Below are positions 43,424 to 46,400 of a DNA stretch of 64,000 nt, piece after piece. Source of the stretch: Escherichia coli 042 (GTDB taxonomy: Bacteria > Pseudomonadota > Gammaproteobacteria > Enterobacterales > Enterobacteriaceae); NCBI RefSeq assembly GCF_000027125.1, contig NC_017626.1. One strand, given 5' to 3'. Numbering within the stretch: position 1 is the stretch's first letter; every line of letters begins with the position of its first letter. A program made the position numbers.

Positions 43424-46400
43424 TCAAATCAGCTTGCGCGCTATTTTACGCGCCAACGCGCAAGGAAACTTGATTTTTAACTGCGTGGGGTGCCGAAAAT
43501 TTCTAAAAATCCGCTGATTTCCGGCCTGCGCTGGGTAAACAAGGTCACAATATCTTCTACCGCTTTGCCGCTGCCAAATTTGCGCCATGCCAGACTCAAT
43601 GGCGAAGGAGGGCGCATCGTTGGGATTACCCGGCTGACCAGTTGTTGATTATCGATCATTGACTGGCAAAGTGATTTTGGCAAAAAACCAATGCCAACGC
43701 CCGCCAGATGGGCGGCGATTTTCGTTTCCATATCAGGAACAATAATCTCTTTTTGCCCTGGCAATCGCCAGGCGACGCGTTTGGTTAAGGTGCGGGCGCT
43801 GTCTTCAATATTGACCGCCGGAAAGCGACGCAACTGCGCTTCTGTTAGCGGCTCTTCAACGTTCGCCAGCGGATGATCCGCCGCCATGACAAAGCGCCAT
43901 TGCACCGATCCTAAGGGATCAAGACTAAAGGTATTTGCCAGCGCCTCGGTTCCCGTGACGCCGATAGCCAGTGAAAAACCTTCGTACAATAGCGAGTCCC
44001 AGACGCCCATATAGATTTGCCGGGAGATGTGGAACTGGGTAAAGGGGTAACGTTCATTCAGCCACGCCAGCAGCTGGGCGACGGCCTGGGGATTGTAGAG
44101 CAGGTTGTTGATGACAATATTCACCTGGCGTTCCACGCCATCATTCACCTGTTGCAGCTCGCTGGGCATACTTTCCAGCCAGCTCAGCCAGTCTCTGGCC
44201 TGAGAAAGTAGATGCTCGCCAGCCGCTGTCAACGTCACGCTGCGAGTCGTGCGGAAAAACAGCGCCACTCCGGTATTCTCTTCCAGAAGTTTAATGCGAT
44301 AACTGATCGTCGCCGTGGTTTTACATAATCGTTCTGCCGCTTTTGAAAAACTTCCTGTTTCAGCAACCGCAATGAAAGTCCGCAAGGTTTCTGGATCGAA
44401 CATCTTCAGGTATCCCCTTTTAAATCCGCAAGTTGCGTGATTTTCTTATCCTCTGATTTATCAGTATTTTTACATGATAACCCTGTTCAATTTGTGGACT
44501 AAATCTAGTTTTGGAAAAATATTCCAACTTTTGTGTTGATGTTGTTCTCTTAAGGTTTTAGATTGCCTGTTATTGAAACCAAGCTGACCGGTCGGCGCTG
44601 GTTGAACGGAATTATGTTACAAGGACAAAAAGATGAAACTTCAGGTATTACCGTTAAGTCAGGAAGCCTTTAGTGCTTATGGCGATGTAATCGAAACGCA
44701 GCAACGGGATTTTTTCCATATTAACAATGGACTGGTAGAGCGTTACCACGATTTGGCGCTGGTTGAGATTCTTGATCAAGACCGTACGCTCATCAGCATT
44801 AACCGCGCGCAACCGGCGAATCTGCCGCTGATCATTCACGAACTCGAACGTCATCCGCTGGGCACTCAGGCCTTTATCCCGATGAAAGGTGAAGTGTTTG
44901 TGGTGGTCGTGGCGTTAGGTGACGACAAACCAGACCTGTCAACGCTGCGGGCGTTTATCACCAACGGTGAACAGGGGGTGAATTACCATCGTAACGTCTG
45001 GCATCACCCACTTTTCGCCTGGCAGCGCGTCACCGATTTTCTGACCATCGATCGCGGCGGCAGTGACAACTGTGATGTTGAAAGTATTCCTGAACAGGAA
45101 CTCTGTTTTGCGTGACGCCTGCAACCGACTTGCATAAGATAAACTAATTGTTCATTGTTTATGCTCACTTGTAGGTCGGAGTTAACGTAGGTATGACGGA
45201 AGTTAGACGGCGCGGCAGGCCAGGACAGGCGGAGCCTGTGGCACAGAAGGGCGCACAGGCGTTAGAGCGGGGAATTGCGATTCTGCAATATCTGGAAAAA
45301 AGTGGGGGGAGTTCGTCGGTTAGCGATATTTCTCTCAATCTGGATTTGCCGCTCTCCACGACCTTTCGCTTGCTGAAGGTTTTACAGGCAGCGGATTTTG
45401 TCTACCAGGACAGTCAGTTAGGCTGGTGGCATATAGGATTAGGTGTTTTTAACGTCGGTGCGGCGTACATCCATAACCGCGATGTCCTCTCCGTCGCCGG
45501 GCCGTTTATGCGCCGCCTGATGTTACTTTCCGGCGAAACGGTCAATGTCGCGATTCGTAACGGCAATGAAGCAGTATTAATTGGTCAGTTAGAGTGTAAA
45601 TCGATGGTCAGGATGTGTGCGCCGCTGGGCAGTCGTCTGCCGCTGCATGCTTCCGGCGCGGGCAAGGCGCTGCTTTATCCGCTGGCGGAAGAGGAGTTGA
45701 TGAGCATCATTCTGCAAACCGGTTTGCAGCAGTTTACGCCAACGACGCTTGTGGATATGCCCACCTTGCTGAAGGACCTGGAACAAGCGAGTGAACTGGG
45801 CTATACCGTAGATAAAGAAGAGCATGTTGTAGGCCTGAATTGCATAGCTTCAGCAATTTACGATGATGTAGGTAGTGTTGTTGCCGCTATCTCCATCTCC
45901 GGGCCTTCATCAAGACTGACAGAAGATCGTTTTGTCAGTCAGGGTGAGCTGGTCAGAGACACCGCCCGCGATATCAGCACGGCGTTGGGACTGAAAGCAC
46001 ATCCATAGTGTCTGTCGCATCCCGCTCTGCGGAGCGGGTTTTTTTGACAAAATTTGAAAGTTGGAAAATTTTTCCAATTAATAGAGGTAGGAATAAAATG
46101 GCAAAAATGAGAGCCGTTGACGCGGCAATGTATGTGCTGGAGAAAGAAGGTATCACCACCGCCTTCGGCGTTCCGGGAGCTGCAATCAATCCGTTCTACT
46201 CAGCGATGCGTAAGCACGGCGGTATTCGTCACATTCTGGCGCGTCATGTGGAAGGTGCTTCGCACATGGCGGAAGGTTATACCCGCGCAACGGCAGGGAA
46301 TATCGGCGTATGTCTGGGGACTTCCGGTCCTGCGGGCACGGACATGATCACCGCGCTCTATTCCGCTTCTGCTGATTCCATTCCTATTCTGTGTATTACC

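Follow-up and report, generated by a model that had tools for sequence, protein, structure and literature searches.

Two short inverted repeats of closely similar sequence stand on either side of the allA and allR genes of Escherichia coli 042, and the question they raise is which protein, if any, reads them. They lie in a 64,000-nucleotide stretch of contig NC_017626.1 (assembly GCF_000027125.1), here called the window, whose numbering is used for all coordinates unless another record is named: site 1 in the divergent control region between allS and allA, and site 2 in the gcl promoter. We conclude with high confidence that each of these repeats is an operator of AllR, an IclR-family repressor whose gene lies between the pair. 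An initial annotation made from the sequence had read them in the same way and had called this an annotation aid rather than a novelty. That interpretation is supported, and the modest label is apt since AllR operators have been known and experimentally characterized since 2002; the feature itself is thus already known.

Results

To describe the two sites, we start with their sequence and symmetry. Operator 1 (TTGGAAAAATATTCCAA, 44511–44527) and operator 2 (TTGGAAAATTTTTCCAA, 46061–46077) are found exactly where, and with exactly the 17-bp sequences that, the initial annotation gave, and they do flank allA (44633–45115) and allR (45193–46008), with 1550 bp between their centres. They are rightly called near-identical, agreeing at 15 of 17 positions on the same strand and at 16 of 17 when site 1 is reverse-complemented. 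The claim that both are perfect palindromes holds for site 2 (8+1+8, with 8/8 arm pairs) but not for site 1, an imperfect palindrome with 7/8 arm pairs in which positions 7 and 11, the unpaired arm position, are both A. Site 1 is centred at 44519, the midpoint of the 229-bp allS-allA intergenic region being 44518; the start codons are 107 nt away on the allS side and 105 nt away on the allA side. Site 2 sits within the 89-bp allR-gcl spacer, 22 nt 3’ of the allR terminator stem, and ends 20 nt before the gcl ATG. Since the window contains 43 palindromes of 17 bp with at least 7/8 arm pairs (four of them perfect), palindromy alone is unremarkable; the sequence that the two sites share is the part not due to chance.

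Both sites correspond closely to the published AllR motif, which, like the longer recognition site, is attributed to Rintoul 2002 and was taken second-hand from later papers quoting it. The E. coli motif given in PMC8222616 (Table 1) is KTTGGAAWAWTWTTCCAAC; site 1 with its flanks (tTTGGAAAAATATTCCAAc) fits it at 19/19 positions and site 2 with its flanks (gTTGGAAAATTTTTCCAAt) at 18/19, and the 17-bp core motif TTGGAAWAWTWTTCCAA is matched with 0 mismatches at both, which bears out the earlier statement that they match the known AllR operator pattern. The annotation had also proposed a comparison with published AllR footprints: the 37-bp recognition site is quoted in PMC13300388 as AAATCTAGTTTTGGAAAAATATTCCAACTTTTGTATT, and the stretch at 44501–44537, which contains site 1, is identical to it at 36/37 positions, with G for A at 44535. 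The AllR operators of K-12 (Rintoul et al. 2002, Walker et al. 2006, Hasegawa et al. 2008) occupy the same locus and the same positions beside the same genes. Site 1 is identical to the K-12 site at 532329–532345 (NC_000913.3), site 2 differs from K-12 533879–533895 at the central base only (T here, A in K-12), and in the flanks the two strains differ at 44535 and 46079 only; all of these are strain-level polymorphisms, to which we ascribe no difference in function.

Published experiments place AllR in these same regions. Binding in K-12 was established by electrophoretic mobility-shift assay and footprinting, as cited by later papers, glyoxylate lowers the binding, and allantoin is a corepressor according to Hasegawa 2008 (PMC11323563); the DNA-binding form is, per published work, a tetramer. 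In chromatin immunoprecipitation with quantitative PCR (ChIP-qPCR), FLAG-tagged AllR was enriched upstream of allA in both K-12 and enterotoxigenic E. coli (PMC3459970), and one allS-allA operator is reported to control both genes (PMC12535856). For gcl, a lux reporter driven by a promoter fragment amplified with primers just 3’ of the allR stop codon and at the Shine-Dalgarno sequence is repressed by AllR; because so short a fragment suffices for repression, the gcl promoter and its operator fit in ~80 bp (PMC13300388). Annotation and literature together thus put both sites in regions reported to be bound by AllR, the allS-allA intergenic region and the gcl promoter, and the repressor would be expected to bind them, and to be released by glyoxylate, in strain 042 as well. 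The gene for it is intact, encoding a 271-aa open reading frame (ORF) with 99.6% identity to K-12 AllR, and its C-terminal domain matches PDB 1TF1 (‘Negative regulator of allantoin and glyoxylate utilization operons’) with E=1.5e-109. The regulatory targets first proposed, allA/allS and gcl-hyi-glxR, are supported except that the name of the latter operon was truncated, as it runs from gcl to glxK (PMC12535856, PMC10163214).

The binding partner might instead be IclR, a paralog that also responds to glyoxylate and that could occupy the sites mainly, or alongside AllR. Its boxes in the aceBAK and iclR promoters (TGGAAATNATTTCCA) are A/T-rich palindromes of the same class, their arms being GGAA/TTCC, and IclR is, like AllR, a tetrameric member of the IclR family released by glyoxylate (PMC8222616; PMC11323563), the two proteins sharing the effector-domain fold and most glyoxylate-binding residues (PMC11323563). 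Over the inner 15 bp the IclR motif (PMC8222616 Table 1) even fits 12/14 specified positions at site 2 and 11/14 at site 1. Yet at the inner positions by which the two motifs can be told apart, 7 and 9, the sites depart from the IclR box, whereas the AllR motif fits perfectly there: AllR sites are 17 bp long, carry an extra T/A at each end and have A/T where IclR prefers T/A, and they serve another regulator and another regulon. Moreover, the sites accompany allR in every genus examined, and it is AllR for which ChIP (PMC3459970) and regulator-dependent reporter repression (PMC13300388) have been published in these regions. We therefore consider it very improbable that these are IclR boxes or boxes shared by both proteins.

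The AllR motif is highly specific within the window. At ≤1 mismatch to the core TTGGAAWAWTWTTCCAA the two sites are the only matches in the 64 kb, and they are still the only ones at ≤3 mismatches, while 100 dinucleotide-preserving shuffles gave zero matches (chance expectation 0.00). A weight matrix trained on non-Escherichia orthologous sites only scored site 2 at 33.5 bits and site 1 at 32.8 bits of a maximum of 34.4. No other position in the 64 kb scored above 7.2 bits, a value within shuffle noise (shuffled-sequence maximum 8.7). The window spans the ALL cluster and, judged by this motif, holds exactly two AllR operators, which agrees with a report that the allD-allF control region is not among the targets of AllR (PMC12535856).

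To see how the sites have been kept in evolution, we scanned one genome per species for the AllR protein, which yielded 23 loci, placed allS, allA, allR and gcl in each by tblastn and then searched for the motif. In all 19 non-Escherichia loci in which both regions are present, the search gave two sites and no more (≤3 mismatches), the first in the allS-allA interval and the second in that of allR and gcl; these loci come from Superficieibacter, Klebsiella, Raoultella, Citrobacter, Buttiauxella, Izhakiella, Atlantibacter, Providencia and other Enterobacteriaceae, about nine other enterobacterial genera, in which AllR identity falls from 90% to 66%. In an alignment of 21 sequences, 12/17 columns of site 1 are invariant as against 9/212 in the remainder of the allS-allA intergenic region, and 11/17 columns of site 2 as against 7/71 in the remainder of the allR-gcl region. 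Mean column identity is 0.97 for site 1 and 0.56 for the rest of its intergenic region, and 0.94 and 0.68, respectively, for site 2. Across genera, the two operators are between 1541 and 1636 bp apart. The cross-genus footprint thus lends independent support to the reading of both sites as AllR operators.

These data also bear on whether the sites could be chance A/T-rich palindromes, or promoter A/T tracts, that no protein recognizes specifically. E. coli does have A/T-rich intergenic DNA, and palindromes as good as these recur in the window at the frequency given above, but shuffled sequence never produced the motif, the sites agree with each other at 16/17 positions, and they hardly vary in about nine other genera, in which column identity in the flanking intergenic DNA has dropped to ~56–68%. 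The chance explanation is effectively refuted.

The pattern of change within the sites is informative as well. The arms TTGGAA/TTCCAA are kept as sequence with zero compensatory exchanges, and variation is confined to positions 7–11; because the arms are conserved in this way, base-specific recognition by a protein is favoured over a hairpin. That the repeats act instead by forming hairpins in the nucleic acid, either a cruciform or an RNA stem-loop that serves, for instance, as attenuator or processing signal, is barely credible: inverted repeats can fold in principle and site 2 lies just 3’ of the allR terminator, but the predicted hairpins are weak (-4.1 and -4.7 kcal/mol, z-scores -2.1 and -1.7), the arms behave across genera as just described, and most of site 2 would lie outside the gcl mRNA if that begins near 46079, as predicted. 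A hairpin role was rejected on account of these weak predicted folds. At site 1, position 11 is A in 19/22 sequences and 7/8 arm pairs are found in 20/22, while at site 2 position 11 is T in 21/22. Since the published motif permits W at positions 7, 9 and 11 (PMC8222616), the asymmetry of site 1 is within the known degeneracy of AllR operators.

We then asked how each operator lies relative to its promoters, using cross-species hexamer scoring, which replaced a generic promoter scan, and Cappable-seq start calls, which cover the + strand. The best candidate for gcl that is consistent across species extends over 46044–46072 (+ strand), with a -35 TTGACA at 46044–46049, a 17-bp spacer and a weak -10 AATTTT at 46067–46072 that falls in operator 2. 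This -35, a TTG-type hexamer, is at the end of the T-run of the intrinsic terminator shared by allR and the small RNA (sRNA) AllZ (46021–46038, + strand), which was found by terminator scan and is conserved across genera; the distance between the terminator stem and operator 2 is gap-free in 21/21 sequences. On the other side, the Shine-Dalgarno sequence follows operator 2 within a few bases and so leaves little room for a gcl promoter elsewhere in the reporter fragment. From this arrangement we infer that the operator covers the -10 and start region, roughly -18 to -2, with a start near 46079. Under non-inducing conditions, Cappable-seq called zero + strand start sites at the gcl promoter, which fits repression under those conditions without placing the start.

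Two further observations concern this short spacer. K-12 annotation places AllZ (b4831, verified by northern blot; PMC8175672) at window 45811–46045 (K-12 NC_000913.3 533629–533863), over the allR 3’ end and the terminator, and a very strong internal start site is found at 45814 (Cappable-seq score 410, versus 2–44 for the allA and allR starts); the AllZ/allR end and the gcl promoter are thereby packed into ~60 bp, with the AllZ terminator abutting the gcl -35. In addition, a RutR site upstream of gcl has been reported (PMC10163214, citing Hasegawa 2008); a search with the RutR box TTGACCANNTGGTCAA at ≤3 mismatches gave none near gcl (46009–46097) and four chance-level matches elsewhere in the 64-kb window.

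In the allS-allA region the allA side is anchored by a mapped start. We take the offset between U00096.2 and U00096.3 to be 776 bp, which would place position 531614 of the former at window 44572; both the AllZ 5’ end and the A found at most mapped starts fit this offset. A + strand Cappable-seq start site is listed at U00096.2 531614 (PMC4782308 supplement), and the corresponding base at 44572 is an A located 7 nt 3’ of TAGATT. The allA promoter (44536–44572, + strand) accordingly consists of a -35 TTGATG at 44536–44541, a 17-bp spacer, a -10 TAGATT at 44559–44564 and this start; both hexamers are conserved alignment blocks, and the pair is one of two near-tied top candidates across species. 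Relative to the mapped start, operator 1 is centred at -53 (-61 to -45) and stops 8 bp short of the -35, leaving the core promoter clear. SMRT-Cappable-seq supplements contain zero entries for these genes. A shared bidirectional -10 inside operator 1 was also considered; it scored moderately, but the mapped allA start favours the downstream TTGATG/TAGATT pair.

For allS we infer a candidate promoter with low confidence on the - strand (44503 to 44474): a -35 TTTAGT at 44503–44498, an 18-bp spacer and a -10 TATCAT at 44479–44474. Its mean score in the cross-species hexamer scoring is 2.1, the conserved blocks CTAAAT and CAT.AT speak for it, and it mirrors the allA promoter around the operator, its -10 being equally far from the operator centre. 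By this mirror symmetry, operator 1 is probably about -53 from the allS start too. As in the general class of single operators shared by divergent promoters, there is one palindrome, here at the centre of a 229-bp divergent region; unlike in that class, site 1 is upstream of both -35 hexamers, according to start-site data on the allA side and to prediction on the allS side.

Conserved blocks outside the operator were seen on both sides of this region. On the allA side, GTTGATG (44535–44541) corresponds to the -35 and GGTTTTAGATT (44554–44564) to the -10. On the allS side they are CTGATTTAT.AGTATTTTT.CAT.AT (44452–44478), TGTGG (44493–44497) and CTAAATCT (44499–44506), which may be elements of the allS promoter; alternatively, the nitrogen or anaerobic control of allS to which PMC12535856 refers may act there.

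Discussion

The arrangement of the two operators suggests how AllR may work at this locus. In the absence of inducer, AllR would occupy both sites. At gcl, AllR bound over the -10 and start region would physically exclude RNA polymerase and keep the gcl operon (gcl to glxK) off. Between allS and allA, the 37-bp recognition stretch would touch the upstream edge of both -35 hexamers, and a single AllR at the centre most likely hinders docking of the polymerase at both divergent promoters. Glyoxylate would then free the DNA of AllR and derepress gcl, allA and allS, after which AllS would activate the allD and allF operons.

Several points weigh against this account. The limits of the AllR footprint and the published start sites are known to us second-hand, and the sites described here are known from their sequence. 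An operator centred at -53 is outside the allA core promoter, and plain steric occlusion only partly explains the repression of allA. The allA start was mapped under non-inducing conditions and could belong to a promoter that AllR does not control; a second allA candidate, TTGTGG and AAAAAT separated by a 17-bp spacer, places its -10 inside the operator and scores almost as well across species. Finally, the generic promoter scan gave no strong sigma-70 match at allA, allS or gcl and returned the terminator of allR only.

How repression from -53 might be achieved can be illustrated by IclR. In work by Yamamoto and Ishihama from 2003, an IclR site reportedly reaches upstream of the -35, and a second mode of repression, described at aceB, is said to act on bound polymerase. 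This would be a plausible analogy for the AllR site at -53.

The two-operator model could be extended in two ways. One AllR tetramer could bridge the operators, ~1.55 kb apart, looping out allA-allR so that gcl, allA and allS would be repressed cooperatively; looping is possible because there is one 17-bp palindrome per promoter while the AllR tetramer has two DNA-binding dimers. The range of operator spacing given above neither favours nor rules out a loop. On a lesser scale, the departure from symmetry that site 1 keeps across genera might adjust its affinity or benefit an allS promoter element that overlaps it. Both extensions are speculative; taken jointly, a bridging tetramer or a functional asymmetry seems unlikely to us.

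The significance of the two sites is for annotation only: they mark two cis-elements that link glyoxylate to the glycerate branch of allantoin use and, via allS, to the oxamate branch. The value of the footprint is likewise modest, as it confirms that the two-operator layout, the spacing between the gcl operator and the terminator, and the central placement of the allS-allA operator are conserved across Enterobacterales.

Genes and other features of the window

The genes of the locus were assigned from the RefSeq annotation of an identical E. coli record, which agrees with the Pfam domains and the ORF list for allS, allA, allR and gcl. A 2-kb stretch of the locus matches E. coli strain Ecol_316 at 100% identity and a K-12 derivative at 98.4%, and most of it was found in 5401/5426 complete E. 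coli genomes. On the - strand, allS (43477–44403) encodes a LysR-type activator and would be a target of operator 1, as would allA on the + strand, which encodes ureidoglycolate lyase (both from the ORF list, RefSeq and Pfam). The allR gene, also on the + strand, encodes the IclR-family repressor predicted to bind both operators (RefSeq; Pfam HTH_IclR and IclR_C). Finally, gcl (46098–47879, + strand, ATG at 46098) encodes glyoxylate carboligase, with Pfam domains of a thiamine pyrophosphate (TPP) enzyme; it heads the gcl operon and would be a target of operator 2. Two Cappable-seq starts, at 45147 and 45165 (scores 27 and 44), precede allR, and the AllR motif is absent from their vicinity, which suggests that allR is not autoregulated via a canonical operator.

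Three minor observations were made along the way. Among the loci of the footprint, contig CACSKA010000001.1, assigned to ‘Chryseobacterium sp. 18061’ (L009), carries a fully enterobacterial allS-allA-allR-gcl arrangement with an AllR 85% identical to that of E. coli, and both of its operator cores equal those of Citrobacter sp. 18056 (L021); this assembly appears to be contaminated or to bear the wrong label. The type I toxin gene dinQ is annotated between ybbP and mnmH (selU) in the matching E. coli record (L001 3520–3675), near the ALL cluster and some 2.5 kb upstream of allS, roughly at window 41819–41974. Finally, a perfect 17-bp palindrome, TTGACCGTCACGGTCAA, is present at 7460–7476 in G+C-rich, coding-looking surroundings and is unrelated to the AllR motif.

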